Shown here piece by piece: positions 5,384 through 52,549 of a stretch of 64,000 nucleotides of DNA. A program made the translations under genes and the position numbers. The notes below the pieces were generated by a model. It saw only the letters and a program-made list of their open reading frames with translations, was not told where the DNA came from and did no database searches. Numbering within the stretch: position 1 is the stretch's first letter; each line of letters starts with the position of its first letter. Source of the stretch: Archangium sp. (GTDB taxonomy: Bacteria > Myxococcota > Myxococcia > Myxococcales > Myxococcaceae); assembly GCA_030695565.1 (NCBI GenBank), contig JAUYRZ010000112.1, positions 1,112-65,111 of the forward strand, given 5' to 3'.

Positions 5384-7204
5384 GTGGCGACCGCCGTCGT
5401 GCAGGAGCGCCGTCGCGCGCAAGACTTCACGCTGACCTGGTTGTTGGACGCGCTCGTCACGGCGGGCTCGTTGAGCAAGACCCAGGCCTCGGACATCGCG
5501 GCCAAGCAGGCCCAGGCCAGTGCGCGGGTGCTCAAGAGCATGGGCGCCGAGCGCTACGTGGTCTCGCCCATCGAGATCGTCGCGGCCTTTCAGATCCCCG
5601 TGGGCACGCGGGCGGGTGAAGTGCTCGATCAGGATCGGGTGTGCGAGGTGGCCGCGAAGGCGGCGGGCGTGACGTATCGGAAGATCGATCCACTCAAGCT
5701 CGACATGAACCTCGCCGCGAAGATGGTGAGCAAGCCCTACGCGCAGAAGCACTGCATCCTCGCGCTCGATGGCGGCACCGGCCCGGGCGTTCCGCTGGTG
5801 GTCGCGGTGGCCAACCCCTTCGATCACGAGCTGTTCGAGAACCTGGCGCGCCTATCGAACACCCAGATCGTGCCGGTGCTCTCGGCGAAGAACGACATCC
5901 TCAAGGGCATCGCCGACGTCTACGGTTTCAAGCGCACGCTCGCCGCGGCCGCCGTCGAACACGCCGAGGCGACGCAGGGCATCACCAACTTCGAGCAGCT
6001 GGTCTCGTTGTCCACGGGGCGCGAGCTCGATGCGGGTGACAAGCCGGTCATTCAGGCCGTCGACTACCTGCTGCGCTACGCCTTCGACAACCGCGCCAGT
6101 GACGTGCACGTCGAGCCCAAGCGCGATTCGTCGCTGGTGCGCCTGCGCATCGATGGCGTGTTGCACGGCGTGTACACGTTGCCAGGTCAGCTCCACCTGC
6201 CGATCGTCGCGCGCATCAAGACCATCTCGCGGCTCGACATCTCGGAGAAGCGCAAGCCGCAAGACGGCCGCATCAAGGTCGATCGCGATGGGCGCGAGGT
6301 CGAGATCCGCGTCAGCACGCTGCCCACGGCCTTCGGCGAGAAGGTGGTCATGCGCATCTTCGACCCCGAGACGCTCGCGGTCGACGTCACGCGGCTGGGC
6401 TTCGATGAGATGGAGCAGCGCATCTTCGAGGGGTGGATCGCCGAGCCCCACGGCCTCATCCTGGTCACCGGGCCGACCGGCAGCGGCAAGACCACCACGC
6501 TCTATTCAGCGCTCAAGGCCCTCGCCGGGCCCGACGTCAACGTCACGACCATCGAAGATCCCATCGAGATGGTGTGGGACGCGTTCAATCAGGTGCAGGT
6601 GCAGCCGAAGGTCGGCCTCGACTTCGCCAACGCGCTGCGCCACATCCTCCGGCAGGATCCCGACATCATCATGGTCGGGGAGATCCGCGACGCCGAGACC
6701 GCGGAGAACGCGGTGCAGTCGGCGCTCACCGGTCACCTGGTGCTCTCCACGCTGCACACCAACGACTCCTTCGGCGCAGTGAACCGGCTGATGGATCTCG
6801 AGGTGCCCCCGTTTCTCTTGAGCTCGGCGTTGCTGGGCGTGATGGCGCAGCGCCTGGTGCGCAAGGTGTGTGGCTCGTGCAGCCAGCCGGTGCAGTTGTC
6901 GCAGGAGCAGGTCGCGGCGCTGGGAGCTCCGATTCCCCTGCTGCCGGGCGGGCCGAAGTTCATGAAGGGCGCTGGCTGTGTGAAGTGCAGAGGCACGGGG
7001 TACCTGGGGCGCACGGCGGTGTTCGAGATCTTCACCGCGACGCAGGAGATCAAACAGATGATCGCGAAGAAGGCGCCTCCCGAGCAGCTGGTCGCCGCGG
7101 CGCGCGCCATGGGCCTGCGGACACTTCGAGAGGCTGCGGTGCGCAAACTGGCCGAGGGAGAAACCACCTTCGAAGAGGTGCTGCGCATGACCACGGTGGG
7201 GTAG
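5384..7204 (+). CDS. GspE/PilB-family secretion ATPase (orphan)
   Basis: GTG at 5384 lies 8 nt after AAGGAG. N-terminal T2SSE_N/MshEN-like region, Walker A GPTGSGKTT, Asp/His boxes, and a tetracysteine cluster CGSC...CVKCRGTGYLGR. No other T2SS or T4P genes are nearby. Confidence 0.85.
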   Translation: MATAVVQERRRAQDFTLTWLLDALVTAGSLSKTQASDIAAKQAQASARVLKSMGAERYVVSPIEIVAAFQIPVGTRAGEVLDQDRVCEVAAKAAGVTYRKIDPLKLDMNLAAKMVSKPYAQKHCILALDGGTGPGVPLVVAVANPFDHELFENLARLSNTQIVPVLSAKNDILKGIADVYGFKRTLAAAAVEHAEATQGITNFEQLVSLSTGRELDAGDKPVIQAVDYLLRYAFDNRASDVHVEPKRDSSLVRLRIDGVLHGVYTLPGQLHLPIVARIKTISRLDISEKRKPQDGRIKVDRDGREVEIRVSTLPTAFGEKVVMRIFDPETLAVDVTRLGFDEMEQRIFEGWIAEPHGLILVTGPTGSGKTTTLYSALKALAGPDVNVTTIEDPIEMVWDAFNQVQVQPKVGLDFANALRHILRQDPDIIMVGEIRDAETAENAVQSALTGHLVLSTLHTNDSFGAVNRLMDLEVPPFLLSSALLGVMAQRLVRKVCGSCSQPVQLSQEQVAALGAPIPLLPGGPKFMKGAGCVKCRGTGYLGRTAVFEIFTATQEIKQMIAKKAPPEQLVAAARAMGLRTLREAAVRKLAEGETTFEEVLRMTTVG

Positions 7205-25690: not shown

Positions 25691-26974
25691 TCAGCTCTGT
25701 CTCTCGGGATCGATGCCGTCGGCAGTCAGCCGCTCCTGAGAGGCGGGCTCGGCCACCGTGCCCTTCGGATGCTGGTACCAGCCCGTGCCGTCTTCCTGGT
25801 CGGGGCGCGCGCGCACCTTGAGCACCGTGAACATGCCGCCCATGTCGATGGACGCGAACGGCCCCTTGCCGCCCATCATGGGGATCGAGTTCGTCGGCAT
25901 CTTCATTTCCATCTGGGACATGGCGCCCATGCCGTCGTGGCCCATCGTCATGTAGCTGGGCACCAGCGCTTGAACGCGACGGTCGATTCGACGTGCGTCT
26001 GCGCCGATCATCACGGGGAAGCCGTGGCCCATCTGGTTCATCACGTGGTGGGTCATGTGGCAGTGCATCGCCCAGTCGCCAGCCTCTCTGGGAACGAACT
26101 CGAACACGCGAACAGCGCCCACCGGCACGAGGAAGGTGGTCTCGGGGTGGCGAGCCGACTGCGGCACTTCGCCTCCGTCAGTCCAGGTCAGCTCGGCGCT
26201 GAGGCCGTGGAGATGAATCGGGTGGTGATCCATCGGCGAGAGGTTCCCGATGCGGATCCGCACGCGCTCTCCGACCCCCATCACCAACGGTGCGGTCGCC
26301 GGAAATGCCTTCGAGTTGAAGGTGAGGACGTTGAAGTCCTGCATTGCGTTCGGGTCAGGCCGGGCCGCGCCCGGGTGAATGAGCCACTCGTGCGCCATCA
26401 AGGCGAAGTCGCGATCGACGCGGGGCCCGCGGGGCACTTTGGGGTGCACCACGATCATCCCGTTCATGCCCAGGGCCATCTGGGTCATCTCGTCGAAGTG
26501 CGGGTGGTACATGAACGTGCCCGCGTCTTTGAACGTGAACTCGTAGAGGAACGTCTCCCCCGGCTCGATCGGCTTCTGGGTGAGGCCCGAGACACCATCC
26601 ATCCCGTTGGGAAGAATGACGCCGTGCCAGTGCATCGTGGTCGCTTCGGGAAGGCGGTTCGTGACGTAGAGCCGCACCCGATCGCCCTGCGTCACTTCGA
26701 TGGTCGGGCCCGGCGTCGAGCCGTTGTACCCCCACGCTTTGATCTTCAACCCTGGCGCGAGCTCATGATCGAACTCGTGAGCCACCAGTTGGCCCACCTT
26801 GACTCCGCCTACCAACTTGAGGGGAAGCGTCGAGCCGTTGGGGGTGATCACTCCCTTTTGGCCACCGGGAGCCACCACCACTGAAGGCGCCGCAACGGTC
26901 TTGGCGAACACATCCTTCGCTCCCAACGCACCGCCTGCGACCATGCCCAGCTGCAACAATTCACGACGGTTCAT
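25691..26974 (-). CDS. Tat-exported three-domain multicopper oxidase with Met-rich region
   Basis: ATG at 26974 gives a Tat-like signal, MNRRELLQLGMVAGGALGA. Copper ligand motifs HWHG, YHPH, HPIHLHG, HCHMTHH. Met-rich segment MTMGHDGMGAMSQMEMKMP...MMGG. Confidence 0.85.
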   Translation of the reverse strand: MNRRELLQLGMVAGGALGAKDVFAKTVAAPSVVVAPGGQKGVITPNGSTLPLKLVGGVKVGQLVAHEFDHELAPGLKIKAWGYNGSTPGPTIEVTQGDRVRLYVTNRLPEATTMHWHGVILPNGMDGVSGLTQKPIEPGETFLYEFTFKDAGTFMYHPHFDEMTQMALGMNGMIVVHPKVPRGPRVDRDFALMAHEWLIHPGAARPDPNAMQDFNVLTFNSKAFPATAPLVMGVGERVRIRIGNLSPMDHHPIHLHGLSAELTWTDGGEVPQSARHPETTFLVPVGAVRVFEFVPREAGDWAMHCHMTHHVMNQMGHGFPVMIGADARRIDRRVQALVPSYMTMGHDGMGAMSQMEMKMPTNSIPMMGGKGPFASIDMGGMFTVLKVRARPDQEDGTGWYQHPKGTVAEPASQERLTADGIDPERQS

Positions 26975-26975
26975 T

Positions 26976-28376
26976 TCAATGTCCTCCTGAAGAGTCGACA
27001 GCCATGGAGTTGCTGCCTGGCACTGCGCCCAGCACCAGCGGGGTCGAGCGACCGGCAAGCAGCAGCTCCAGAGCCGCACGTGCCTTCCACGCATCGAGCG
27101 TCGCGTCGACCTGCGAGATGGCCGCCTCCGTCACTTCGCGCTGCGCGGAGAGCACCTGAAACACGCCCACCTGCATGGCGTTGTACTGCAGCACCGTCTG
27201 CTCCAACTGTTGTTGGCGGGCGGGTACCAGGCGCTCTGCGTAGTGGCGCGCGCGGCGGCCTGCCGACTCCACCCGGTTGAGCGTCATGCGTACGGCGGAG
27301 CGCACCTGCAGCGCTTGCCCTTCTGCCCGCGCCCTGAGCCCGTCGTACTCGCTGCGCGCCGACAACTGCCGTCCCTGAGCGCGATCGAAGATGGGCAAAC
27401 CAACGGTGACGTGGCCGCCGAGCTCCCAGAGGTTCGCGTCGCGTTCACCGTGAAAGCCCGCGGAGAGGTGCGGTAGCCAGGCTTCGGTCTTCGCCATGCC
27501 GACCTTGCGGCTCGCCGCTTCGGCGCGGCTGAACAGCTCTGCGAGCTCCAGACTGGCCTCGATGGCCTTCGCTTCGACCGCGTCGCCGGTGGGGACCTCT
27601 TTGGGCACCGGCAACTGATCCGCGAAGGTCCACCGGGTGCGCGAGCCGGTGAGGCCCAACTTTCGGGTGAGGGCTTCGCGCCCATCGAGCAGCGCGTTCT
27701 CTGCCTCGGCGACTTGAACGCGCGACAGCTCGACTGCCGCCAGCTCATTTGCCAGTGCAAGCGCAGGCAGGTTTCCGACCCGGGAGAGCTCGAGCGCCGT
27801 CTCGTAGGAGGCCTGCTGCGAGGCGAAGGCCCGCAGTCGCAGGTCGAGCTTCTGCTGGAGCGCTTGCGCCTCGTAATAGGCAACGCGAGTCGACCAGGTG
27901 AGGTCGAGCAGGGCGCCCGCTGCTTTCCAGCGCTCCGCATCGAGCGCGGCCGAGGCAACCCCCGCGCGCAGCGGCGCAAGGAAGGTCGCGGTGAGGTTGA
28001 GCTCGAGACCAATGTCGATCTGAATCGGTTGTTGGTCCCCACCGGGGTCTCTCAGCTCGAACTCCACTTCGGGGTTGGGCACGAGGCCCGCCTGCATGAA
28101 CTGACCGCGGGCGATGCCGATCTCCGCAAGCGAGGCTCTGGCCTCACGGTTGTTGATCAGCGCCAGGCGCACTGCTGCATCGGCGGTGAGCGGCTGCTCG
28201 AGAAGTCGGTCGACCTCTTCGGGTACTGCCTCGGGGGTCTCGAGGCGAGGAAGGTCGAACTCAGCGACGGCGGCCCTTGCGGTGACCGTGCGACGAATCG
28301 AGGCCAGGTCTTCGTTCAGGCCAGTGGTGGCGCAGCCCGCCGCCAGGAGCGCAATGAGGATCGTGGGCTTCATCAT
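26976..28376 (-). CDS. TolC-family outer-membrane efflux lipoprotein (orphan OMF)
   Basis: ATG at 28376/28373. Lipobox LLAAGC. Two OEP-type helical repeat halves. No RND or MFP gene in the same operon. Confidence 0.8.
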   Translation of the reverse strand: MMKPTILIALLAAGCATTGLNEDLASIRRTVTARAAVAEFDLPRLETPEAVPEEVDRLLEQPLTADAAVRLALINNREARASLAEIGIARGQFMQAGLVPNPEVEFELRDPGGDQQPIQIDIGLELNLTATFLAPLRAGVASAALDAERWKAAGALLDLTWSTRVAYYEAQALQQKLDLRLRAFASQQASYETALELSRVGNLPALALANELAAVELSRVQVAEAENALLDGREALTRKLGLTGSRTRWTFADQLPVPKEVPTGDAVEAKAIEASLELAELFSRAEAASRKVGMAKTEAWLPHLSAGFHGERDANLWELGGHVTVGLPIFDRAQGRQLSARSEYDGLRARAEGQALQVRSAVRMTLNRVESAGRRARHYAERLVPARQQQLEQTVLQYNAMQVGVFQVLSAQREVTEAAISQVDATLDAWKARAALELLLAGRSTPLVLGAVPGSNSMAVDSSGGH

Positions 28377-28855
28377 TTCGCCCCCGGGTTCTGGCTGAGG
28401 AAGCTGCGCCGACAAGAGGACGAGCAGAACCAGTACTGCGTTCCGTTGACCTTCAGGGTGCCGCCCTTCGCGGTCTTCGGGTCGATCTTCATCTTGCACA
28501 CGGGGTCGGTCACCATGGCCTCTGGCGCTGCTGCGGGCTGCTGCGTCGCTGAACCGCCATGCTGATGATGCTGATGACCCTCGTCCTTCTTCTGCTCGGG
28601 TTGGGGCGCGGGAGCAGGTTCTGGCATCGGCGCTCCGCCATGCTGATGCCCTCCTTCGGTGGTGACCTCGGCGCACGGTGAGCCTGATGCGGTCGGCAGC
28701 CCGCAGTTCGGCGCAGCCAGCGGGTCTTCGGGCGCCAGGGTGCTGGCGACCGCGAGGCGCACGGTTTCCGGCTCGGGGGCAGCCCGAGTCTGGTGAGCAG
28801 AGGGACCTGCGCAAGCGGCAAGAAGCAGGAGAGAAAGAGGGACTCGAGGTGACAT
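28373..28855 (-). CDS. His-rich YHS-domain lipoprotein
   Basis: ATG at 28855. Lipobox LLLAAC. His-rich stretches GGHQHGG and EGHQHHQHGG. C-terminal YHS motif DPVCKMKIDPKTA...YWFCSSSC. Confidence 0.75.
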   Translation of the reverse strand: MSPRVPLSLLLLAACAGPSAHQTRAAPEPETVRLAVASTLAPEDPLAAPNCGLPTASGSPCAEVTTEGGHQHGGAPMPEPAPAPQPEQKKDEGHQHHQHGGSATQQPAAAPEAMVTDPVCKMKIDPKTAKGGTLKVNGTQYWFCSSSCRRSFLSQNPGAK

Positions 28856-28876
28856 GACGGCTCCGAGACGGTGGAA

Positions 28877-28902
28877 GACGCGACTACCAGCTGCGAATGA
28901 CA
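28877..28902 (-). promoter_or_regulatory. CorE-type ECF promoter variant (TGTCAT-N16-CGTC) for the YHS-OMF-MCO operon
   Basis: Minus strand reads acgTGTCATtcgcagctggtagtcgCGTCttcc. Same 16-nt spacer and same -10 box as the other four sites. The -35 box differs at one position. Confidence 0.45.
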
Positions 28903-28903
28903 C

Positions 28904-28930
28904 GTAGGCCACAGGTGCTTTTTCGTGACA
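28904..28930 (-). promoter_or_regulatory. Second-ECF-type promoter candidate (TGTCACG-N16-CCTAC), immediately upstream of the CorE-type box
   Basis: Minus strand reads acgTGTCACgaaaaagcacctgtggCCTACg. Its -10-like box ends 1 nt before the TGTCAT box. Confidence 0.5.
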
Positions 28931-28951
28931 CGTGCCGTGATTCTTCAGGGC

Positions 28952-30163
28952 CTAACGCGCCTCGACCGGCTTCGCCTCGCCGAGAATCTCGAAGGCCCGC
29001 GCCATGGTTTGGCCCAGGCAGGCCTTCAGCACTCCGAAGGTGTGTGGTTGGCCAAGTGTCACGCGCCCAACCAGCAGACCCCCACGACCCAGCAGCGCAA
29101 CGAACCGGCCGCGCGCGGGCTCACCCATCAGATGGCAGGTCTCATCGCCCTGGTGCTCGCCACTGAACTGCAGCCTCTTGCCGAAGAGTTCGGTGCTCCC
29201 CGATGGATTCGGGAAAGTGGCTTCCATCGCACCCACGGCATTCTGGCCCACGGAAAAGCCGTGCTGAGCAGCAAAGCCGTAGCTTTCCACGCGCAGGCGG
29301 CGGCCCAGCGATGGGCTCCAGGGTGAGGCCACGTCACCGGCGGCGAAGACGCCTGGCGCTGAGGTGCGGCCGAACTCGTCCACGACCACGCCGTCGCCGA
29401 GCGTGAGGCCGCTTCCTGCGAGCCACCCGATGGCAGGCTCGGCTCCGAGCGCGACGACCACAAGATCAGCCGCATGGACCTCTCCGAAGGTCGACAGCAC
29501 ACCTTCGACGCGCGTCGCTCCGAGCACTCGTTCGACCTGCGTACGAAGACGCACCATGACGCCCATCGCTTCGATGAACGGAGTCAGTGCCGCGCCGGCC
29601 AGAGCTCCGAGCGAACGAGAAAGCAGCGCGCTTCCCCTCTCGAGAACTGTTGCGTGCGCACCGCGTTCCTTCGCGGCGCTGGCGACTTCGAGACCGAGCA
29701 ACCCACCACCGATCACCACGATGCGCGACCCGGGCCGCAAGTCTTCGCGCAGCGCGACCGCATCTTCCCAGGTGCGCACGGAGCGCACTCCGGGCAGATG
29801 CGCGCCGGGCACCGCGAGGCGTCGTGGTGAACTGCCTGTGGCGATGATCAGACGGTCCCACGAGACCGCTTCACCCGAGGAGAGCGCGACGTGCTGCTTC
29901 TCGAGCGAGAGAGCCGTTGCGATGACTCCACGGCGCACTTCGATTCGCTGCTCACTGTAGAAACGTTCGGGCTGCAGCCAGAGCGAGGGGAGGGTGACGC
30001 GCTCGTCTCTGAGGACCTCCTTTGAAAGCGCCGGCCGCTGGTAGGGCCACGCTTGCTCGGCGCCCAACATCAGCACCGGGCCTGCGTGGCCGTACTCACG
30101 GATCGCCTCCGCTGCGCGACTTCCGGCCAGGCCTGCGCCCACGATGACGATCGAGCCTGACAT
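28952..30163 (-). CDS. FAD/NAD(P)H-dependent oxidoreductase (ferredoxin/rubredoxin reductase-like, AIF family)
   Basis: ATG at 30163. Dinucleotide motifs IVIVGAGLAG and IVVIGGGLLGLE, plus AAGDVA. No N-terminal CxxxxC redox disulfide. Confidence 0.8.
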   Translation of the reverse strand: MSGSIVIVGAGLAGSRAAEAIREYGHAGPVLMLGAEQAWPYQRPALSKEVLRDERVTLPSLWLQPERFYSEQRIEVRRGVIATALSLEKQHVALSSGEAVSWDRLIIATGSSPRRLAVPGAHLPGVRSVRTWEDAVALREDLRPGSRIVVIGGGLLGLEVASAAKERGAHATVLERGSALLSRSLGALAGAALTPFIEAMGVMVRLRTQVERVLGATRVEGVLSTFGEVHAADLVVVALGAEPAIGWLAGSGLTLGDGVVVDEFGRTSAPGVFAAGDVASPWSPSLGRRLRVESYGFAAQHGFSVGQNAVGAMEATFPNPSGSTELFGKRLQFSGEHQGDETCHLMGEPARGRFVALLGRGGLLVGRVTLGQPHTFGVLKACLGQTMARAFEILGEAKPVEAR

Positions 30164-30165
30164 CT

Positions 30166-30381
30166 TCAGGCCGCCCGCGACTCGTAGCCTGCATCGCGCA
30201 GCGCGCTCACGAGGCTGACGATCTTCACCCCCGCGACGTGCTTCACCACCACCTTGCCTTCGCGCAGCTTCACCTCGACCTGATCGACTCCGTCCACGTC
30301 TTTGAGGGCGGTGCTGATGTGGTGAATGCAGCTGGGGCAAGTCATGCCGTCGACGCTCAACAGGGTATCCGTGGTGTCCAT
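30166..30381 (-). CDS. copZ: CopZ-like heavy-metal-associated (HMA) metallochaperone
   Basis: 71 aa from the ATG at 30381. GMTCPSC metal-binding motif. AGGAG ribosome-binding site. The stop lies 2 nt before the oxidoreductase start. Confidence 0.85.
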   Translation of the reverse strand: MDTTDTLLSVDGMTCPSCIHHISTALKDVDGVDQVEVKLREGKVVVKHVAGVKIVSLVSALRDAGYESRAA

Positions 30382-30431
30382 GTGCTTCTCCTGGTGTGAC
30401 GCGCGGACGAAGTGTTCGCGGTCGAGAAGGA

Positions 30432-30457
30432 GACGCCTTCGGTTTTTGGGCATTACA
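30432..30457 (-). promoter_or_regulatory. CorE-type ECF promoter candidate (TGTAAT-N16-CGTC) for copZ-oxidoreductase
   Basis: Minus strand reads aggTGTAATgcccaaaaaccgaaggCGTCtcct. Confidence 0.55.
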
Positions 30458-30490
30458 CCTCGCCCCGAAAGTGACGGTCGCGCAGTCACC

Positions 30491-30516
30491 TGTAATGCCG
30501 CGCAGCGAGCCGCGTC
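30491..30516 (+). promoter_or_regulatory. CorE-type ECF promoter candidate (TGTAAT-N16-CGTC) for copA
   Basis: Plus strand reads caccTGTAATgccgcgcagcgagccgCGTCcccc, 22 nt upstream of the copA ATG with CAGGAGGG in between. Confidence 0.55.
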
Positions 30517-30537
30517 CCCCGCTTCAGGAGGGACACC

Positions 30538-32814
30538 ATGTCCACGAACTCGCAGACGCAGGGCCAGGAAGAAGTGCTTCAGGTGATGGGGATGACGTGC
30601 GCGGCGTGCGTGCGGCGCATTGAAGGAGCGCTCAGCAAGGTCACCGGGGTTCAGGCGGCTTCAGTGAACTTGATCACCGAGAAGGCGACCGTCCGCTTCG
30701 ATCGTTCGCTCACCAGCATGGCCGCGCTCGAGCAGGCCATCGTGAAGGCAGGCTACGGCGTCGCGCCGCAGGCACCTGCCGAAAAGGAAGTGCCGGCAAA
30801 TCAACTGAGCCAACTGGAGGCCACTGAGCGCACCGAGCACGAGCAGCTCAAACGAGACACCATCGTGGCTGCGCTGCTGGCCGTGCCGCTGTTGGTGCTG
30901 GGCATGTCTCACGGCGCGATCCCGGGCGCCGACGGCCCGGTCGGTCGGGTGGTGCAGCTGCTCCTCGCCACGCCGCTGGTCTTCGGTCCGGGGCGTCGAT
31001 TCCTGGCGCTCGCCTGGAAGGTCACGCTTCACGGTGCAGCCGACATGAACACCCTCGTCGCCCTGGGCGCGCTCTCCGCGTGGGGCTGGTCGACGGTTGC
31101 CGTGTTGCTCCCTCAACTGTTTCCGCACGCGGAGCATGGTCACCGGCCGCACATTTTCTTCGAGGCGGTCGTCGTGATCGCCTTCGTGCTCGCCGGCAAG
31201 ATGCTCGAAGCGCGCGCCCGCCGCCGCCTTTCAGATGCAGTGCGTGGGTTGCTCTCCAGGCTGCCACCTGAAGCCACGCGGTTGGTCGACGGCATCGAGT
31301 CGAAGGTGAAGGTCTCCTCGCTGCAAGCGGGTGACGTGGTGCTCGTGCGGCCGGGCGAGAGCGTGCCCGCAGACGGCGACGTGCTGCAGGGCAGCTCCGC
31401 GGTCGATGAGGCGATGTTGACGGGGGAAGGTCTGCCCGTCGAGAAGCGGCCTGGCGACCAGGTCTTCGGCGGCACCGTGAACGCGCACGGTGCGCTGACC
31501 GTGAAGCTGATTCGCACCGGCGCCCACACCGCGCTCAGCCGGATCGTGCAGGCCGTCGAATCAGCGCAAGGCAGCCGCGCGCCCATCTCGCGCCTCGCGG
31601 ATCGGGTCAGCGCCATCTTCGTGCCGGTGGTGCTGGGCATCGCCCTGGTCACCTTCGGCGTGTGGTGGGCCCTCGACCCGACAGCGGCGGGGCTCGCGAC
31701 GGCCATGCAGCACCTGGTGGCGGTGTTGGTCATCGCCTGTCCTTGCGCGCTGGGCCTTGCGACTCCCGCGGCTGTCGCGGTGGGCACGGGCCGCGGCGCC
31801 GAGTTGGGTGTGCTGGTGAAAGGCGGAGAGGTGCTCGAGTCGCTGAGCCGCGTGCAGACGGTGCTGCTCGACAAGACCGGCACGGTCACCTCCGGGAAGC
31901 CGACGCTCACCGACGTGGTGGCGCTGGGTGATGAGGCTGCACTGCTCCGAAGGGTCGTCGCGGTGGAGAAGCTCAGTGAGCACCCTGTCGCGAAGGCGGT
32001 GGTCGAGGGCGCCGAAGCGCGGCTCAAGGAGCGCGTGCCTGCCGCTCAGGGGGATTTCTTCAACGAGCCCGGCGCGGGCGTGGAGGCGGCTGGCATTCGC
32101 ATCGGCACGAGGGGCTGGCTCGAGCTCGCCGGCATCGATCCGACTCCGCTCGAGGCCCAGGCCGAGGAACTCGCCTCACGAGGCCGCACGCCTTCCTTCG
32201 TCGGTGACGTGCCCTCCAGGACGCTGCTCGGGCTGGTGGCCGTGATGGATTCGCCTGTGCCTGAGGCCAGGGCGGTGATCGACGCACTGAAGACGCTTGG
32301 ACTCGAGGTGGCGCTGGTGACCGGTGATCGACGACGCACCGCACAGGCCGTCGCGAAAGAGCTGGGCATCTCCCGGGTGGAAGCGGAGGTGAAGCCAGAG
32401 GGGAAGGCGGCCGTGGTCGCGAAGGTGAAGGCGCAGGGGCGGGTGGTCGCCATGGTCGGTGACGGGATCAACGACGCTCCGGCCCTCGCCGCCTCTGATG
32501 TCGGCATCGCCATTGGTACCGGTACGGACGTCGCCGCAGCAACCGCTGACGTGGTGTTGCTGCGTGGAGGCATCTCGGCGCTGCCCCGCGCCATTGGCCT
32601 GGCGCGCGCGACGCTGCGCAACATCCGCCAGAACCTGTTCTGGGCCTTCGTCTACAACGTCGCGGGCATTCCCCTGGCGGCGGGTGCGTTGGTGCCGCTC
32701 TTCGGCCTCGAGCTCTCGCCCGTCTTCGCCAGCGCCGCGATGTCGCTCTCGAGCTTGTCGGTGCTGACGAACGCGCTGCGGCTTCGCCGCTTCGCTGCTG
32801 TTCAGTCGAAGTAG
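30538..32814 (+). CDS. copA: Copper-translocating P1B-type ATPase
   Basis: N-terminal [16 protein letters not shown] motif [11 protein letters not shown]. Phosphorylation site [15 protein letters not shown] hinge. Confidence 0.92.
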
Positions 32815-37904: not shown

Positions 37905-37932
37905 TGTCACGCCCCGGGCGGGTCGCGCCTAC
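37905..37932 (+). promoter_or_regulatory. Second-ECF-type promoter candidate (TGTCACG-N17-CCTAC)
   Basis: cccTGTCACgccccgggcgggtcgcgCCTACccgcgcATG. The -10-like box ends 6 nt before the ATG at 37939. Confidence 0.5.
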
Positions 37933-37938: not shown

Positions 37939-38379
37939 ATGAGATCATTCTTTTTCGCAGCGGTGTTCGTCCTGACCGCGGGTTGTGGCGCTTCAATGCC
38001 CGGCAACGCCGCGGATTCAGGAGCGAACGTCGATGATGCGGGCACAGCCGAAGGAATGGATGCAGGGCGTGACGCGGGGGCCGGCGCTGTCGACGCGGGC
38101 CCGGTGATGCCCGGAGCCCCTGTCCTGACCTCCGTCTCGGTGGTGACTCACGGCACGATGGCCATCAACTGGCAGCTCCCCGCTTCGGGGTGCTCGACGT
38201 TGGCGTTGCGAATGAAGGTGGGCGCCGGTGCCTACTCGACGGTTCGCTCCCTGACGGGGGTCGCGACCTCGACGCAGTACAGCCCGGGTCACGCCAACGG
38301 CACGTACTGCTACCAGCTCACCTGCACCCTGCAGGGGCTGGAGTCGGCTGCCTCGAACGAGCGGTGCGCGACCCAATGA
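37939..38379 (+). CDS. Small FN3-like lipoprotein
   Basis: ATG at 37939. Lipobox VLTAGC, Asp/Ala-rich linker, then an FN3-like beta domain (PVLTSVSVVTHGTMAINWQLP...YCYQLTC). The stop overlaps the next start (ATGA). Confidence 0.6.
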   Translation: MRSFFFAAVFVLTAGCGASMPGNAADSGANVDDAGTAEGMDAGRDAGAGAVDAGPVMPGAPVLTSVSVVTHGTMAINWQLPASGCSTLALRMKVGAGAYSTVRSLTGVATSTQYSPGHANGTYCYQLTCTLQGLESAASNERCATQ

Positions 38380-39257
38380 GAATCGCGCTGCTGATTCTCG
38401 CCCTGGCTGGTTGCGGGCAAGGCAAGACGGAGCCCCGAAAGTATCCGCCGACAGGGCAGACGAAGACCTTCAACCTCACCGCCCGTGACGTGGAGTGGAC
38501 GGTGGGGCCCGGCGCCGTCTACCTGGCCTGGACCTACGATGGAACGGTGCCCGGGCCGCAGCTCGACGTCACGGCAGGCGACACCGTGGTGATCAACCTG
38601 AGCAACGAGAGCAATCACCCCGTCTCGATCCACACGCACCTCGTCGAGTTCGAGCAGGCGCAAGACGGCGTCGAGCCTTCGTCGTGGGCGCAGCCGGGGC
38701 AGACCGTCACGGTGACCTGGAAGACGAGCTACGCGGGGGCGGTGCCCTACCACGACCACGCCGATGAGGGCCTCGGTGTGGGGCGAGGGCTGATCGGTGC
38801 GCTGGTGATTCACGCGCCCGACGAAGTGAAGGCGAATGAGCACGTGGTCGTGCTCACGGACCTTCTCCCGGAGTACTTCAAGACGCTCCCGGGCGTGGCC
38901 GACCCCATCACGGGCGAGTTTCCTGACGCCGGCACCTATCGAGGGGCGCACCAGTACCTGCACACCATCAACGGCAAGGCGTACGAAGAGTCGGTGCCTC
39001 ACTTCACCGGCACTGTGGGCGAGCTGAGCCGCTGGCGCATCCTCAGCATCGGGCAGGAGGTCCACACCTGGCACCTGCATGGGCACCGCTGGGTCGACGG
39101 AGATGGGCAGCTGACTGACAACATCCAGCTGGCGCCCGGCATGTACCGCACCTTCGAGTTCACCGAAGACGCGGTGGGTGACTGGCTGGTGCATTGCCAC
39201 GTGCCGAACCACATGGAGGGCGGAATGATGGCCCGCTACCGGGTGGTGCCGCGCTGA
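38376..39257 (+). CDS. Two-domain (small laccase-like) multicopper oxidase lipoprotein
   Basis: 293 aa. Lipobox LALAGC. All four copper-ligand motifs are present in only two cupredoxin domains: SIHTHL, YHDHAD, HTWHLHGHRW, HCHVPNHMEGGM. Confidence 0.8.
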   Translation: MRIALLILALAGCGQGKTEPRKYPPTGQTKTFNLTARDVEWTVGPGAVYLAWTYDGTVPGPQLDVTAGDTVVINLSNESNHPVSIHTHLVEFEQAQDGVEPSSWAQPGQTVTVTWKTSYAGAVPYHDHADEGLGVGRGLIGALVIHAPDEVKANEHVVVLTDLLPEYFKTLPGVADPITGEFPDAGTYRGAHQYLHTINGKAYEESVPHFTGTVGELSRWRILSIGQEVHTWHLHGHRWVDGDGQLTDNIQLAPGMYRTFEFTEDAVGDWLVHCHVPNHMEGGMMARYRVVPR

Positions 39258-40115: not shown

Positions 40116-41531
40116 TCAGGGCATCACCATCAGGTCGCCCATCATGCCGCCCTCGGCGTGCTCGAGGATGTGGCAGTGGAACATCCACATTCCCAGCGGC
40201 TCGTAGCGCACTGCGAAGCGCAAGATTCCCGGCGTCGTGCCTCGGGCCTGCGGCACGTTGGCGGTGTCCTTCCAGCCGCGCCGGGTCTCCGGCACGCCGT
40301 TGACTTCGAGCACCTCGAAGAACATTCCGTGAAGGTGAAACGGGTGGTCCATCTCTGCTTCGTTTCTGACCTCCCAGATCTCCACGTCGCCCTGCTTGAC
40401 CATCACCGGAGTGTTGAAGGGCCAGACCTCGTCGTTGATCGAGAAGACCACGCCGCTGGGCGTCTCGAGTTCCTTGAGTACGAAGCGCCGGACTGCAGTG
40501 GCAGCGGTGGTGGGCGCGAGCACCGGCAGGTCTCGCCAGACAGTGGGCAGCGCGAGAGGCGGTGACTTTCGTGCTGCTCCGAGCACCACGTTCATCAGCG
40601 GCTTGACGCCCGGGTCGGGCACGTTGTGCCCCCGATCGTAGTGGCTGGTTTGAAGCGCGAGGCGGTCACCCGCCTTGCCGTCGAAAGTCACCAGCAGCTC
40701 GTAACGCTCGCCGGGAGCGATCAGCAACGAGTCGACTTTGTAGGGTTCAGGGATCAACCCGCCATCCCAGCCCACCACCAGGAGCTGCGCGCCCGGCAGT
40801 GACAGCTTGAAGTAGCGGCCATTGGCGCTGTTCACCAACCGCCAACGCTCTCGCGAACCAGAGGCCACCTCGAGCGACGGCAACTTGCGGCCATTGACGA
40901 GCAAGACGTTGCCCTGGCGGCCGAGCATCACGTCGAGGTTGTCGGTCTGCGTGGAGAGTTTCCCGTCGGCGCTGAGCTTGACGTCATCGAGCACCAGATA
41001 CCGATCCGCCGCGACGTCGACGGCCGTGCCGCCTTCGACGATGAAGGGCGCGTAGAGACCTCGCTCAACCTGCGTGTCGCCGCGAACGTGCGGGTGGTAC
41101 CAAAAGCTCCCTGGGTCGCCGACCGTGAACGTGTAGTCGTAGCTCGCGCCTGGCTCGATCTTCGACTGCGAGGAACTCGAGCCGTCAGCGGCGTTGGGCA
41201 GGCGCAGCCCGTGCCAGTGAACGGTCGTCGGCTCTGCGAGCTCGTTGATGAAGTGGACGATCACCGTGTTGCCCACCTTCGCGCGAAGGGTGGGGCCGGG
41301 AATGGTGCCCTTGCTGCCGGCCACTGATGCGTCTCGAAACGCCCAGACGTCAGCCGGTTTGCCCGGCAGGTATTCGGCCGTCGAGACCGACGCCGCGAGC
41401 CGCACCTCGACGATGTTCGGATCCGGGTTCAGATCGGCGAGCTCGACGGGGGCCGGGAGGGCATTCTCGAGAGGCGCCGCCGGTTCGCAGCCCACGCAGA
41501 ATCCAATGAGTGCCGCGCTGAGAGCTCTCAT
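40116..41531 (-). CDS. Three-domain multicopper oxidase lipoprotein
   Basis: Lipobox IGFCVGC. Copper ligand motifs HWHGLRLP, WYHPH, HPFHLHG, HCHILEHAEGGMM. Confidence 0.85.
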   Translation of the reverse strand: MRALSAALIGFCVGCEPAAPLENALPAPVELADLNPDPNIVEVRLAASVSTAEYLPGKPADVWAFRDASVAGSKGTIPGPTLRAKVGNTVIVHFINELAEPTTVHWHGLRLPNAADGSSSSQSKIEPGASYDYTFTVGDPGSFWYHPHVRGDTQVERGLYAPFIVEGGTAVDVAADRYLVLDDVKLSADGKLSTQTDNLDVMLGRQGNVLLVNGRKLPSLEVASGSRERWRLVNSANGRYFKLSLPGAQLLVVGWDGGLIPEPYKVDSLLIAPGERYELLVTFDGKAGDRLALQTSHYDRGHNVPDPGVKPLMNVVLGAARKSPPLALPTVWRDLPVLAPTTAATAVRRFVLKELETPSGVVFSINDEVWPFNTPVMVKQGDVEIWEVRNEAEMDHPFHLHGMFFEVLEVNGVPETRRGWKDTANVPQARGTTPGILRFAVRYEPLGMWMFHCHILEHAEGGMMGDLMVMP

Positions 41532-41532: not shown

Positions 41533-42486
41533 TCAGTTGTTTGGAGCGCCCTGCAGGATCCACGTCGCGATCTTGTTCTTCTCCGCGGTCGTCAGCTCAG
41601 GTGCAGGCGAAGGCGGCATGCGGCCAAGGGCCACCCCGGGCATCTTGTTGCAAGTGCCGCCGCCTCCCGGGTCTCCCGCTACCGCCTGGTAGAGCTGGCT
41701 CTGCGTGAGCGACCCGCCCGTGACGTACTTCTTTCGGGTCGGCTCGCACATCCAGGAGTCGAGCTCCGTCAGGCGCTCCCAGAGCGACCGATCGGGGCAC
41801 CCCGTGTTCGCGTTGTTGGTGGGGTTCTTCGAGCCGAGAGGAACGTTCTCGAGCGCCAGCCAGCCGCGGCAGCCTCCGGAGGGGCTGGGCCCGTACGCAA
41901 TGCGGGAGTGGCAGCTGTTCGAGCCAGCACCGCATGAAGCGTTCAGGATCGGGACGATGTGTTGCTGAAGCGAATACCCGCCGTCCGGCAGCGACGTTGC
42001 GGTCCCGCCGCCCCCTCCGGCTCCGCCGCCTGTCGCAGTGCCGCCACCCGTTGCGGTGCCGCCGCCGGTTGCCGTTCCTCCGCCTGCTGCGCCACCCGAT
42101 CCGCCGCCGGCAGCGCCGCCTCCGGTTCCTCCGCCTCCACCCGATCCCGTGCTGGGAGCGGTCGCAGTCACTTCGCTGCTGTACGCCGAGAAGGTGCCCG
42201 CCTTCATGGCTCGCACCCGGTACACGTAGACGACGCCTGGGGTCAGGGGCTCATCATGGAACTGCACGGTGTCGAACACGACGGAGCCGATCACTCCGAA
42301 CGTGCCGCTCGACCTGCGCTCGATCGCAAACTCGTCCTCGTCACTCGAGTTGTCCTTCCAGGTGACGTGCAGCCCTCCTCCCAATGGGGTCACGGTGAGC
42401 TCTGAAGGCGCGGGCAGCGAGCCTTCGATGGAACCAGTGCCGCAGGCGGCAAGTGCGAACAGCGATGACAGGGCAAGACGCTTCAT
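41533..42486 (-). CDS. Lipoprotein: FN3 module + Gly-rich linker + Cys-containing cytochrome-c-like (PSCyt-like) C-terminal domain
   Basis: ATG at 42486. Lipobox LFALAAC. The FN3 module is paralogous to the next gene. Linker contains (GGTAT)3. The C-terminal domain starts HIVPILNASCGAGSNSCHS and ends KIATWILQGAPNN. Confidence 0.6.
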   Translation of the reverse strand: MKRLALSSLFALAACGTGSIEGSLPAPSELTVTPLGGGLHVTWKDNSSDEDEFAIERRSSGTFGVIGSVVFDTVQFHDEPLTPGVVYVYRVRAMKAGTFSAYSSEVTATAPSTGSGGGGGTGGGAAGGGSGGAAGGGTATGGGTATGGGTATGGGAGGGGGTATSLPDGGYSLQQHIVPILNASCGAGSNSCHSRIAYGPSPSGGCRGWLALENVPLGSKNPTNNANTGCPDRSLWERLTELDSWMCEPTRKKYVTGGSLTQSQLYQAVAGDPGGGGTCNKMPGVALGRMPPSPAPELTTAEKNKIATWILQGAPNN

Positions 42487-42533
42487 GGGTCGTCCTTCGG
42501 GTGTGCGTTGGAGGAAGGTGTGCCGGAGACCGC

Positions 42534-43487
42534 TCAAGGCGTGATCGTGAGCGAGATCGATTGCGCTCCGGTTCCGCCATCAGAATTCGTGACGGTGAGC
42601 GTGATGATGTTGGTCCCTGCCGACAGCTGGCGGCTGAAGGTGCGCCCGGTGCCGATGACTCCGTCGAGGTTGCTCGTCCAGACCAGACCCGCATCGGGCA
42701 AGGCGCCATCTTCGAAGTCGCGCCCGTCACCGGCGAAGGGGACCATGTTCGCAGCGGCCCGCGTCTCGCCGTCGCTCGGGTGATTGATTCGCGCGAGGGG
42801 CGAGATCGCCGTGACCGTGACGCTGCTGCTGCCGGAGAGGCCTTGTGAGTCGGTTGCTCTGCACGTGACCGTGTGGACACCAGGGACTGGGAGCGTTCGG
42901 TTGAGTGTCAAACCCGAGCCCAGCGGTGGAGTCGCCAGGTTGGTGGTCCACACGACGCTGGCGCCGCTCAAAGCGCCATCCTCCGGATCCGATGCGCTTG
43001 CCGTGAACGTGACCGCTTGATCGTACGGAACGGCGCTTCCAACGGGAGCGCTGATCATGCACGTGGGAGGCAGGTTGCTGGCACCACCACCACCGCCGCC
43101 GCCAATGCCCGCGTCGTTGGAGCCACCACCGCCACCAGACCCCGCCAGAGCCATCGCAGTCGCAGTTGCGGCATTGCTGTAGGCCGACGGCACGTTCCCC
43201 TTCATCGCGCGAACCCGGTACGTGTACGCGGTATCGAAGGTCACCGGCTCATCATGGAACTGCGCGATGTCGAACACCACGCTGCCGATCGTCGCGAACC
43301 CACCGTTGGACTTGCGCTCGATCTGAAACTCATCTTCGTCCAGCGAGTTGTCCCTCCACGTGAGGTGGAGCCCGATACCGAGCTGGTAGACCATCAACTC
43401 GGTCGGAGCGGGGAAGGGTGGCGGATCAATCGTTGCGCTGCCGCAAGCGGTGAAAGCGAGCAGAGATGAAAGAGCGAGACGGTTCAT
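42534..43487 (-). CDS. Lipoprotein: FN3 module + Gly-rich linker + two PKD/Ig-like domains
   Basis: Lipobox LLAFTAC. The N-terminal roughly 110 aa is paralogous to the protein at 41533..42486. Two repeats follow, of the type DPEDGALSG...VWTTNL and DFEDGALPD...VWTSNL. Confidence 0.6.
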   Translation of the reverse strand: MNRLALSSLLAFTACGSATIDPPPFPAPTELMVYQLGIGLHLTWRDNSLDEDEFQIERKSNGGFATIGSVVFDIAQFHDEPVTFDTAYTYRVRAMKGNVPSAYSNAATATAMALAGSGGGGGSNDAGIGGGGGGGASNLPPTCMISAPVGSAVPYDQAVTFTASASDPEDGALSGASVVWTTNLATPPLGSGLTLNRTLPVPGVHTVTCRATDSQGLSGSSSVTVTAISPLARINHPSDGETRAAANMVPFAGDGRDFEDGALPDAGLVWTSNLDGVIGTGRTFSRQLSAGTNIITLTVTNSDGGTGAQSISLTITP

Positions 43488-43519: not shown

Positions 43520-43700
43520 CGAGGTACCCGCAGCCGTGGCCGAGGCGGTGGTCTCGAGAGAGGGTGAGCGGCACCGCAGGCGTGCCCGTCGATGCAGGGT
43601 ACCCGTTCACGGGGGCTCGACACAAATCGGAGGATGTGATCTCTGCCGATGGCAGTGACCCTTCATTTGTTGCCCAGCCCGCGTCAGCCATCAGAGACCC

Positions 43701-43728
43701 GGTCACGGCTTTGACCGCTCGCGCCTAT
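43701..43728 (+). promoter_or_regulatory. Second-ECF-type promoter candidate (GGTCACG-N17-CCTAT) directly upstream of its presumed sigma gene
   Basis: cccGGTCACggctttgaccgctcgcgCCTATcccggagcacacATG. The box ends 12 nt before the ATG at 43741. Confidence 0.55.
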
Positions 43729-43740: not shown

Positions 43741-44265
43741 ATGGCTCAGGGATCAGAATTGGACCTGCTGATGGGCCGGCTGGCCGATGGGGATCGCCAT
43801 GCCTTTTCCCCCCTGTTCAAGGCGCTCTGGTCACCCGCGCTCCGAGTGTGCAGCCGGATGATGGAACGAGAAGCGGACGCGGCCGATGCCGCCCAGGCGG
43901 CCATGATGAAGATCCTCGAGCGCGCTGCCGAATACGACAAGAAGCGCCCCGCCTTGCCCTGGGCGCTGGGGATCGCTGCGTGGGAGTGCAAGACCCTGCT
44001 CAAGCGGCAGCAACGCCACAAAGAGAGCTCGGCCGAGGTTTCGCTCAGCGACGGAGGGGCGGCCACAGAGGAAGTCGAGCAGCGCCTCCTGGTCGAAGCG
44101 GCGATGCACGCGATGGGCACGCTGTCAGAGGCGGACCAACAGACGCTGGTTTCGACCTACTGGGAGACCGCTTCTGCTGAAAAGGGAGCGACGTTCCGCA
44201 AGCGGAGAGAGAGGGCCCTGACCCGGCTGCGCGATACCTTCAGGAGGATTTATGGACTCGATTGA
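43741..44265 (+). CDS. ECF (sigma-70 family group 4) sigma factor
   Basis: 174 aa from the ATG at 43741. Region 2 (DAADAAQAAMMKILERA...) and region 4 (LSEADQQTLVSTYW...TFRKRRERALTRLR). Confidence 0.8.
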   Translation: MAQGSELDLLMGRLADGDRHAFSPLFKALWSPALRVCSRMMEREADAADAAQAAMMKILERAAEYDKKRPALPWALGIAAWECKTLLKRQQRHKESSAEVSLSDGGAATEEVEQRLLVEAAMHAMGTLSEADQQTLVSTYWETASAEKGATFRKRRERALTRLRDTFRRIYGLD

Positions 44266-44797
44266 CCTCGACGGCTTGGAGCGAAAGGCCCGCCTCCGCT
44301 ACGAGTTGGTGCGCGCCGGCCGGAGCCTGCTGGCCTTTGCGCCCGCGCTTCTTCTGGTCGGGGTCGCCGCGGCACTGGGGCGCAGACCGAGCTCTGCGAT
44401 CTTCTTCGGCACGCTGCTCTTCCTCTCCGGGGCCTTCTTGCTTTGGCGCGGTCGCACCGTGCATCGGGCGGTGCTGCCAGGGCTCTTGGCTGGAATGATC
44501 CCCCTCGCGTGCGCACTGATGGCCAATCGAGGCCACGCCTGCTCGGGAGGACATTGCTCCACCTGGTGCCTGCCGGCCTGCATCACCGGCGGCATCGTCG
44601 CTGGCCTGGTGGTGTCGTGGATCGCTACGCGGCGCGGCCTGGACTGGCGCTTCTGGGCTGGCGCCTCCGCCATCTCGCTCCTCACGGGCGCGATGGGGTG
44701 CTCGTGCATCGGCTACTCGGGGGTCATCGGTCTTGGGGCCGGCTTCATCGGAGGTGCGCTCCCGCTGATCGTCCGCCGGCTCTTTACCCGCGCGTGA
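44252..44797 (+). CDS. Cys/His-rich 6-TM membrane protein, candidate non-canonical anti-sigma/sensor
   Basis: Overlaps the sigma gene by 14 nt and has CAGGAGGA upstream. Six predicted TM helices, only about 24 cytoplasmic N-terminal residues, and 7 Cys in total. These form the cluster C-x9-C-x4-C-x3-C-x3-C (PLACALMANRGHACSGGHCSTWCLPAC) plus GCSC. Confidence 0.6.
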   Translation: MDSIDLDGLERKARLRYELVRAGRSLLAFAPALLLVGVAAALGRRPSSAIFFGTLLFLSGAFLLWRGRTVHRAVLPGLLAGMIPLACALMANRGHACSGGHCSTWCLPACITGGIVAGLVVSWIATRRGLDWRFWAGASAISLLTGAMGCSCIGYSGVIGLGAGFIGGALPLIVRRLFTRA

Positions 44798-50814: not shown

Positions 50815-50841
50815 ATAGGCGCGCGAGCCCGGCACCGTGAC
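50815..50841 (-). promoter_or_regulatory. Second-ECF-type promoter candidate (AGTCACG-N17-CCTAT) for cusCBA-1
   Basis: Minus strand reads ccaAGTCACggtgccgggctcgcgcgCCTATcgac, 38 nt upstream of the GTG at 50776. Confidence 0.5.
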
Positions 50842-51015: not shown

Positions 51016-51042
51016 GTCACGCCCGCCGGAACCCACGCCTAT
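51016..51042 (+). promoter_or_regulatory. Second-ECF-type promoter candidate (CGTCACG-N17-CCTAT) for mini-ORF/GMC oxidoreductase
   Basis: ccgCGTCACgcccgccggaacccacgCCTATcgc, 41 nt upstream of the mini-ORF ATG. Confidence 0.5.
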
Positions 51043-51083: not shown

Positions 51084-51122
51084 ATGAAGAAGAAGCTCAA
51101 GATTCGTCACTGCGGCATCTGA
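51084..51122 (+). CDS. Candidate 12-codon leader ORF (MKKKLKIRHCGI)
   Basis: GAGGAGG lies 8-9 nt upstream of the ATG. The stretch is locally AT-richer than its surroundings. The ORF is followed by a hairpin and a T-rich tract before the GMC gene. It is too short to judge by codon bias. Confidence 0.2.
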   Translation: MKKKLKIRHCGI

Positions 51123-51137: not shown

Positions 51138-51170
51138 CGGCGGCTGGGTGAACTCAGCCGCCGTTCTTTC
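51138..51170 (+). terminator. Leader hairpin CGGCGGCTG-N8-CAGCCGCCG followed by TTCTTTC
   Basis: Perfect 9-bp GC-rich stem with a T-rich tail, between the mini-ORF and the GMC start (51192). Possible attenuator. Confidence 0.3.
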
Positions 51171-52521: not shown

Positions 52522-52549
52522 TGTCACGGCGCAGAGGCCCCGCGCCTAG
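52522..52549 (+). promoter_or_regulatory. Second-ECF-type promoter candidate (TGTCACG-N17-CCTAG) for cusCBA-2
   Basis: gcgTGTCACggcgcagaggccccgcgCCTAGcacagctggATG. The box ends 9 nt before the ATG at 52559. Confidence 0.45.

Follow-up and report, generated by a model that had tools for sequence, protein, structure and literature searches.

In this study we focus on two overlapping genes of Archangium sp., encoding an extracytoplasmic function (ECF) sigma factor and a cysteine-rich membrane protein of 181 residues with six transmembrane (TM) helices, and ask what controls the sigma factor and to which signal it answers. The pair occupies positions 43741-44797 of a stretch of 64,000 nucleotides, called the window here (assembly GCA_030695565.1, contig JAUYRZ010000112.1, positions 1,112 to 65,111). 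A sequence-only reading of this DNA had proposed that the membrane protein is a non-canonical anti-sigma factor sensing thiol stress or soft metals, built on an undescribed architecture. The gene pairing, the cysteine pattern and the copper context support the first part of this proposal, whereas the architecture has turned out to be a known one. By analogy with characterised six-TM anti-sigmas, we consider with a probability of roughly 55% that the protein is the cognate membrane anti-sigma of the upstream ECF sigma and senses copper-type thiophilic stress at the periplasmic face of the membrane. The anti-sigma role by itself is somewhat likelier than this whole reading, and direct binding of Cu(I) somewhat less likely. 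The pair probably switches on copper-resistance genes.

The two genes (Table 1) share 14 nt, at 44252-44265, exactly the overlap that had been noticed from the sequence alone. The GC content at third codon positions of the membrane-protein gene (0.85) is typical of the genes in the window, which has 66% GC. A longer sigma open reading frame (ORF) starting with GTG at 43564 was rejected because a conserved promoter falls within it and the homologues begin at the ATG. The next gene downstream is the convergent cusA, the cusC1-cusB1-cusA1 operon ending at 44806. The window is near-identical to an Archangium sp. metagenome-assembled contig (locus L001), in which the membrane protein is 100% identical.

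According to its structural model, the partner is a genuine two-domain (sigma2/sigma4) ECF sigma. Pfam detects region 2 alone (Sigma70_r2, 1e-9), and the best NCBIfam matches, Sig-70_gvs1, SigK and SigM, are all far under their cut-offs. The AlphaFold2 model, with a predicted local distance difference test score (pLDDT) of 82, aligns with full-length sigmaE, SigW, SigK, AlgU and CnrH over about 170-184 columns with a probability of 1.00, both domains being covered. The C-terminus, ...RLRDTFRRIYGLD (FRRIYGLD), bears no Cys-rich extension, and the only cysteines of the protein are C37 and C83. A two-domain ECF sigma that lacks the Cys-rich tail of the CorE type therefore needs an external regulator. 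CorE and CorE2 (ECF238) of Myxococcus xanthus are likewise myxobacterial ECF sigmas involved in copper or cadmium/zinc resistance with cysteine-based sensing, but CorE, which lacks an anti-sigma, detects cytoplasmic metal with a Cys-rich domain at its own C-terminus, whereas here the cysteines belong to the partner and face the periplasm; the missing tail led us to reject a CorE-like (ECF238) sigma. A tblastn search of the sigma against plasmids gave no match, and a hidden Markov model scan of all related loci for further ECF genes returned one weak match only.

Conservation of the gene pair and of its cysteines, on which the sequence-only reading had made its proposal depend, is found in both respects. 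We collected 68 related loci from species-representative genomes, and an orthologous sigma gene lies directly upstream in 65 of them; of the three without an intact pair, L004 is a contig-end case, L060 has an incomplete gene where its contig begins, and L061 is a rearranged fragment. Wherever both genes are complete, the sigma gene is immediately upstream (64/64 loci), with an overlap of 14 nt in 58 pairs, an overlap of 11 or 17 nt in two and a gap of 11 nt in four. Among distant family members (26-39% identical to the window protein), an overlapping gene precedes four of the five with a readable upstream flank; it matches Sigma70_r2 in three of these and is cut by a contig end in the fourth. 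By this comparison the two genes form a strictly conserved, translationally coupled pair. Besides the sigma/membrane-protein partner itself, no neighbouring gene is universally conserved in the related loci.

An AlphaFold2 model of the membrane protein, built with 28 sequences (pLDDT 87, predicted template modelling score 0.78), contains helices at residues 6-28, 31-42, 46-66, 71-94, 106-128, 132-153 and 155-180. The N-terminal helix runs into TM1 via a kink at P31, and five further TM helices follow; 24 residues, forming the cytoplasmic segment, precede TM1. Counted over 251 sequences, lysine plus arginine comes on average to 13.1 for the two termini together with loops 2 and 4, against 1.7 for loops 1, 3 and 5, the N-terminal segment having 6.2 on average. 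By the positive-inside rule both termini are therefore cytoplasmic (N-in), and with six TM helices all the conserved cysteines are thus placed at the periplasmic membrane face. Model and charge counts together agree with the six helices and the cytoplasmic N-terminus of about 24 residues predicted earlier. H95, C97 and C102 belong to the TM3/TM4 loop, C106 and C110 to the first turn of TM4, and C150 and C152 to the last turn of TM5.

The protein has seven cysteines, C87, C97, C102, C106, C110, C150 and C152; C87 to C110 are encoded at 44510-44581 and the GCSC of TM5 comprises residues 149-152, all as originally located. We measured conservation over 250 full-length relatives, divided into a close subfamily and distant members. 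C97, C102, C106, C110 and C150 are present in 100% of the close subfamily and in 93, 95, 95, 93 and 95% of the distant members, respectively, so that this pattern is kept at 93-100% throughout. H95 is found in 99% of close and 79% of distant sequences, C152 in 100 and 63%, and P108 in 100 and 65%. The family signature is H-x-C-x4-C-x3-C-x-P-x-C ... G-C-x-C. The sensing site put forward in the sequence-only reading, a cluster of five cysteines with two histidines (H95 and H101, in GHACSGGHCSTWCLPAC), stands as far as C97, C102, C106, C110 and H95 are concerned, and has to be given up for C87 (10% close, 9% distant) and H101 (60 and 3%), which are not conserved.

A second group of conserved residues lies on the cytoplasmic side. 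Y17, E18 and R21 are conserved at 94-100% family-wide and R14 at 99% in the close subfamily and 69% in distant members; with a spacing of i, i+3, i+4 and i+7, the four residues share one face of the N-terminal helix. The short N-terminus is more than a spacer, and the R14/Y17/E18/R21 stripe is a candidate sigma-binding element. Conservation extends to W65, G67 and R72, located where TM2 ends on the inner side and in the loop that follows.

The promoter motif connects the pair with copper genes. The window contains five copies of GTCACG-N(14-19)-CCTAY, where 0.17 would be expected, and a sixth exact core is present at 52523. Before the sigma gene the motif ends 12 nt ahead of the ATG, so that the sigma mRNA is near-leaderless. 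The motif precedes the sigma gene in most orthologous loci; in the Archangium-like ones its distance to the ATG is about 13 nt. In the 697 kb of related loci we counted 109 core matches against 0-3 in Markov simulations, with a spacer of 16 nt in 104. In these loci one motif usually precedes the sigma gene and another follows immediately on the membrane-protein gene, a placement that marks an autoregulated ECF promoter. Within 6 kb of the pair, 50/64 loci contain Cus, multicopper-oxidase or CopA-type ATPase genes. In the window, where the motif had been said to cover two Cus pumps and two or more multicopper-oxidase operons, we recovered it before both cusCBA operons and two multicopper-oxidase operons.

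Anti-sigma factors with this build have been described, and the principle of six-TM anti-sigmas with functional cysteines was established for NrsF-type proteins in 2012; the statement that the architecture belongs to no described anti-sigma is therefore wrong, as NrsF, OsrA, AbcS and CarR already combine six TM helices, an N-terminus of about 25 residues and functional cysteines. NrsF (DUF1109/PF06532) is the anti-sigma of Caulobacter sigmaF (ECF16); it has six TM helices joined by linkers of 6-19 residues, an N-terminus of 25 residues and, on the periplasmic side, the conserved cysteine pair C131 and C181; sigmaF is freed when these are substituted, and NrsF responds to chromate and cadmium (PMC3511200). 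OsrA (DUF1109) of Bradyrhizobium binds EcfF in a two-hybrid assay and requires C129 and C179 (PMC3420878), and AbcS of Brucella is a further member of the NrsF class (PMC8315932). Both cysteines are needed in NrsF and OsrA, one being exposed to the periplasm and the other modelled as periplasmic (NrsF) or intramembrane (OsrA). The NrsF class responds to metals or oxidants, and SigF/NrsF regulate bufferins, which are secreted Cys-containing, copper-chelating peptides. In the reclassification of ECF sigmas, five ECF groups have six-TM anti-sigmas.

The protein studied here shares with NrsF, OsrA and AbcS a length of about 180-210 residues, six TM helices with short loops, an N-in topology, and a gene directly after that of an autoregulated ECF sigma (64/64 loci, with the motif before the sigma). 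This likeness raises the possibility that it is a very divergent NrsF/DUF1109 member whose cysteines in the TM4 and TM5 regions are the counterparts of NrsF C131 and C181. The N-terminus of 24 residues is close to the 25 of NrsF, and C102 and C152 are 50 residues apart, as are C131-C181 in NrsF and C129-C179 in OsrA. The profiles speak against it: PF06532 is not matched by the window protein in Pfam at E<=1, does not figure in the list of four families that 30 diverse members gave at E<=0.1 (none of which is a relative), and is not among the 25 most-matched of the 77 weakly matching families obtained with 132 members at E<=10, which are scattered chance matches with no recurrent family. NCBIfam gave no match either. 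Moreover, the signature HxC-x4-C-x3-CxPxC ... GC(x)C comprises five to six invariant cysteines and a histidine, against two cysteines in DUF1109, and the proteins are about 30 residues shorter. The family compared here through Pfam/NCBIfam profiles and published descriptions also differs from NrsF in being mainly found in Myxococcota, in its regulon of CusCBA, multicopper oxidases and CopA-type ATPase, and in its GTCACG-N16-CCTA promoter. Sequence gives no support for membership of DUF1109, and remote homology to it is less likely than not.

Other searches did not place the membrane protein in any family of unrelated known function. No Pfam family matched the window protein at E<=1, and RskA, zf-HC2 and RseA models matched neither this protein at E<=1 nor the 30 members at E<=0.1. 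When the model was searched in the PDB with Foldseek, the best match had E=0.84, and a profile search of PDB sequences gave chance xylose-transporter matches alone, at E=0.05 or weaker. Literature searches retrieved no description of this six-TM Cys-rich family. A word-indexed search returned 168 close homologues of about 180 residues, all labelled hypothetical or unnamed, coming, where the organism is given, from Myxococcota (Archangium, Myxococcaceae, Pendulispora); an exhaustive profile search extended this to at least 813 clusters at 50% identity (E<=1e-3), 540 of them at E<=1e-10. The family is largely confined to Myxococcota, reaching Polyangiales, Kofleriaceae and others. What is new, as judged by comparison of sequences, is the family itself, with no DUF1109 match, its signature of five to six cysteines and a histidine, and its copper regulon; the six-TM anti-sigma with functional cysteines is known.

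Among loci assigned to different phyla, L034 (a Gemmatimonadaceae bin), L035 (a Phycisphaerales bin), L022, L041, L052 and L054 have near-identical sequence upstream of the sigma gene. The non-myxobacterial assignments among them probably reflect binning errors rather than horizontal transfer.

CarR of M. xanthus is a six-TM anti-sigma, classified as DUF1109, that sequesters CarQ stoichiometrically, and copper induces the CarQ regulon (PMC9304148, PMC8156234). Both systems thus pair a myxobacterial six-TM membrane protein with an ECF sigma and have a link to copper. Compared by description, however, the carQRS operon has carS downstream, serves carotenogenesis, answers to singlet oxygen through plasmalogens and is restricted to Cystobacterineae, whereas the pair studied here has no carS and no DUF1109 match, lies in copper islands and extends to Polyangiales, Kofleriaceae and others. 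A CarQ/CarR/CarS module was rejected, since the downstream gene is the convergent cusA, carS is absent and DUF1109 is not matched.

The CnrYXH system of Cupriavidus metallidurans offers a further parallel: an ECF sigma activates an operon for heavy-metal efflux of the resistance-nodulation-division type when a metal signal from the periplasm is passed on across the inner membrane, and our sigma model resembles CnrH. The anti-sigma CnrY crosses the membrane once and carries a class II cytoplasmic peptide, metal being sensed by the separate periplasmic protein CnrX, whereas here one six-TM protein would perform both the sensing and the anti-sigma jobs. With the zinc-binding anti-sigma (ZAS) proteins RsrA, ChrR and RsiW the pair has in common a thiol-based candidate anti-sigma next to an ECF sigma; ZAS proteins, though, use a cytoplasmic four-helix anti-sigma domain with a zinc-binding HxxxCxxC. 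That motif is absent from the membrane-protein sequence, as had been noted before, and with only 24 residues before TM1 a ZAS anti-sigma was rejected. A class I anti-sigma domain as in RseA, RsiW or RskA, cytoplasmic, helical, about 80 residues long, fitting in between sigma2 and sigma4 and accompanied by a single TM helix, was rejected as well, the protein having one helix of about 24 residues and six TM helices.

From these features and from the NrsF class we infer how the sigma could be bound, signalled to and released. A near-leaderless operon that activates itself would yield the two proteins in a constant ratio. At rest, the R14/Y17/E18/R21 face of the N-terminal helix would keep the sigma at the membrane, the short cytoplasmic loops (W65-x-G67, R72) probably assisting in holding it. 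A thiol/thiolate cluster at the periplasmic surface would be made up of H95, C97 and C102 from the loop, of C106 and C110 from the upper end of TM4, and of C150 and C152 from that of TM5. Copper-type thiophilic stress, through direct binding of Cu(I)/Ag(I) or through copper-driven thiol chemistry, would alter this cluster and repack the helix bundle. The freed sigma would then transcribe from the GTCACG-N16-CCTA promoters of its own operon, the two CusCBA pumps and the multicopper-oxidase operons.

Several points weigh against this reading. Periplasmic copper sites usually consist of Met and His, exposed cysteines being oxidised there. In the Cys loop (residues 91-110) the model is at its weakest, with a pLDDT of 71-80. 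The analogy with NrsF is one of architecture, as no DUF1109/NrsF or anti-sigma model matches the protein. In 11 related loci a paralogue without a sigma is the first gene of a cus operon, and one distant member, P0176, on a contig of 1.4 kb, has no sigma directly upstream; the six-TM fold could therefore handle metal in its own right. Finally, some distant members have a sulfate-assimilation neighbourhood, so that the signal across the family may be thiol or sulfur stress generally. The case in point is P0268 (26% identity), which together with its sigma adjoins sulfate-assimilation genes in L069, L070 and L071 (around 6001-6537); its neighbours are a 3'-phosphoadenosine 5'-phosphosulfate reductase-type gene, a CysN-like GTPase, a sulfite reductase and a CysG-like methylase, and not copper genes.

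In one rival reading, an anti-sigma of the same build would use its Cys cluster to sense thiol oxidation (disulfide stress, H2O2, HOCl or copper-catalysed mis-oxidation) and not metal, the formation or breakage of a disulfide in the periplasmic cluster setting off release of the sigma. Exposed periplasmic cysteines are normally oxidised, and the C97-x4-C102 hairpin, whose bridge residues in the model are 98 and 101, and C106-x3-C110 have typical disulfide spacings; the distant member next to cysteine and sulfate-assimilation genes would also fit. [quoted passage not shown] In contrast, the Caulobacter sigmaF-dependent genes are induced by metals and not by agents generating reactive oxygen species (PMC3511200). 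Furthermore, the adjacent and motif-driven genes in this clade are overwhelmingly Cus, multicopper oxidase, CopA, YHS and HMA genes rather than Msr, Trx or Dsb, and secreted metallothionein-like Cys-rich peptides accompany the pair in several lineages. We thus regard pure oxidation sensing as unlikely.

The sigma-less paralogues suggest a different function altogether, in which the protein is no regulator but a co-transcribed membrane metal-handling protein, its intramembrane CxxxC and CxC binding or passing metal, for example a Cu(I) or soft-metal binding/transfer protein or a thiol-disulfide oxidoreductase serving Cus and the multicopper oxidases, while the sigma is controlled otherwise. Indeed, these paralogues, which do not occur in the window, stand behind a GTCACG-N16-CCTA promoter and are usually the first gene before cusCBA, and P0176 has no adjacent sigma. 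The glycine-rich TM5 and TM6 would permit tight helix packing, and C-L-P-A-C in a TM helix together with CxC presumably recalls the metal sites of P1B-ATPases and Mer transporters. On the other hand, the 14-nt coupling to the sigma gene is near-universal, no other candidate regulator is conserved beside the sigma, which has no sensing extension of its own, and the charged R14/Y17/E18/R21 stripe has no obvious role in transport. DsbD, DsbB, VKOR and Mer are not among the Pfam matches listed for the 30 members at E<=0.1, nor in the 25 most-matched of the 77 weak families found with 132 members at E<=10. The paralogues retain the ARRAYExxRLRRALLG N-terminal stripe together with H95, C97, C102 and C106, while C110 is changed to Ser or Ala and GCSC to GSTC. 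As the stripe is retained, a second sigma binder acting in feedback fits these orphans at least as well as metal handling does. A purely metal-handling protein seems quite improbable.

Returning to the membrane protein as anti-sigma, a bolder version can be tentatively proposed: a large, mainly myxobacterial family of six-helix anti-sigmas that would sense Cu/Ag directly through a periplasmic thiolate/His cluster, with no separate sensor protein and with lineage-specific extensions (the paralogue and the mini-proteins), as an independently evolved or extremely diverged counterpart of NrsF/bufferin systems. The sigma-induced paralogue at the head of the cus operon may then provide feedback or a second sensor, and the secreted Cys-rich mini-proteins may serve in the periplasm as a sink for metal or as co-sensors.

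If the anti-sigma reading is true, at least 800 protein clusters now labelled hypothetical would receive a name and a testable function. Sigma, sensor, promoter motif and the regulon of Cus pumps, multicopper oxidases and CopA-type ATPases would make up a compact copper-resistance circuit in Myxococcota, a group in which CorE, CorSR and CarR are otherwise held responsible for responses to copper. As a second family with a much richer invariant Cys/His site and a confident model, the present proteins would be a better handle on how six-TM anti-sigmas of the NrsF/CarR type pass a periplasmic or membrane signal to a cytoplasmic tail of 25 residues. In addition, the GTCACG-N16-CCTA motif enables prediction of the regulon in metagenome-assembled genomes.

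Table 1. Features of the sigma/membrane-protein pair, its promoter motifs and its copper-related surroundings. Positions refer to the window unless a related locus is named.
Feature	Position	Strand	Remarks
ECF sigma gene	43741..44265	+	ATG 43741, TGA 44263-44265; 174 residues; sigma2 and sigma4 domains in the model
Six-TM membrane-protein gene, candidate anti-sigma and sensor	44252..44797	+	start ATG 44252; 181 residues
Shine-Dalgarno AGGAGGA of membrane-protein gene	44242..44248	+	inside the 3' end of the sigma gene
Residues 1-24, predicted cytoplasmic N-terminal amphipathic helix	44252..44323	+	candidate sigma-binding element
Residues 95-110, H-x-C-x4-C-x3-C-x-P-x-C	44534..44581	+	predicted periplasmic TM3/TM4 loop and first TM4 turn
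Residues 150-152, C-S-C	44699..44707	+	predicted periplasmic end of TM5
Promoter motif GTCACG-N16-CCTAT	43702..43728	+	before the sigma gene
Promoter motif	50815..50841	-	before cusC1-cusB1-cusA1
Promoter motif	51016..51042	+	before 12-codon ORF, terminator-like hairpin and FAD-oxidoreductase gene
Promoter core GTCACG-N16-CCTA	52523..52548	+	ends 10 nt before cusC2 (cusC2-cusB2-cusA2)
Promoter motif	37906..37932	+	upstream of multicopper-oxidase gene 38190-39257
Promoter variant, 15-nt spacer	28904..28929	-	before YHS-lipoprotein/outer-membrane factor/multicopper-oxidase operon
Copper island: CopA-type P1B-ATPase	30538-32814		
Copper island: CopZ-like HMA protein	30166-30489		divergent
Copper island: three multicopper oxidases	25691-27094, 38190-39257, 40116-41531		
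Sigma-less paralogue	L008, L009, L010, L013, L014, L016, L017, L021, L023, L024, L030		e.g. L014:8123-8668
Secreted Cys-rich proteins	L028:5217-5423, L058:5270-5449, L066:1844-1984, L063:5114-5413, L069:5223-5360, L073:5195-5419		
Secreted protein of about 138 residues	L019:4849-5424, L022:94-522, L029:5005-5421, L038:5016-5432, L050:5005-5421, L055:4993-5412, L042:4887-5294		

The copper island of the window (25691-32814 and 38190-58464) contains, in addition to the genes of Table 1, three outer-membrane factors, two CusBA pairs, one CusB of which bears an HMBD domain, and a His-rich YHS lipoprotein. Two paralogous lipoprotein-like genes with FN3 and PKD/Ig domains and long Gly-rich linkers (41533-43487, minus strand) are transcribed away from the sigma gene and precede the multicopper-oxidase gene 40116-41531; the sigma-type promoter motif was not found upstream of them. 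Regarding the sigma-less paralogues, the ORF of the L008 copy continues into a cusC-like gene.

In several distant lineages, the gene directly upstream of the sigma gene codes for a small secreted Cys-rich protein of 45-99 residues. These proteins consist of a signal peptide followed by CxC/CxxC repeats, e.g. ...ACPCGTTCPCEPSSCACAQCPHCAH, and gave nothing significant in Pfam and NCBIfam. In appearance they are periplasmic peptides of a metallothionein-like kind, reminiscent of the bufferins under SigF/NrsF control. Polyangiales-type loci encode a conserved secreted protein of about 138 residues, with two conserved cysteines and no family in Pfam and NCBIfam; its gene is placed after the promoter motif and before the sigma gene and therefore appears to be the first of the operon.

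Directly behind the sigma-type promoter at 51016, a 12-codon ORF (51084-51122, plus strand) with a strong Shine-Dalgarno sequence encodes MKKK(L/I)K(I/V)RHCG(I/N/L). It is followed by a terminator-like hairpin (51138-51163) and then by the gene of a flavin adenine dinucleotide (FAD)-dependent oxidoreductase. The ORF is also conserved in L006, L009, L014, L016, L023 and L030, and synonymous differences between loci point to selection on the peptide; it could be an attenuation leader peptide or a tiny Cys/His peptide.

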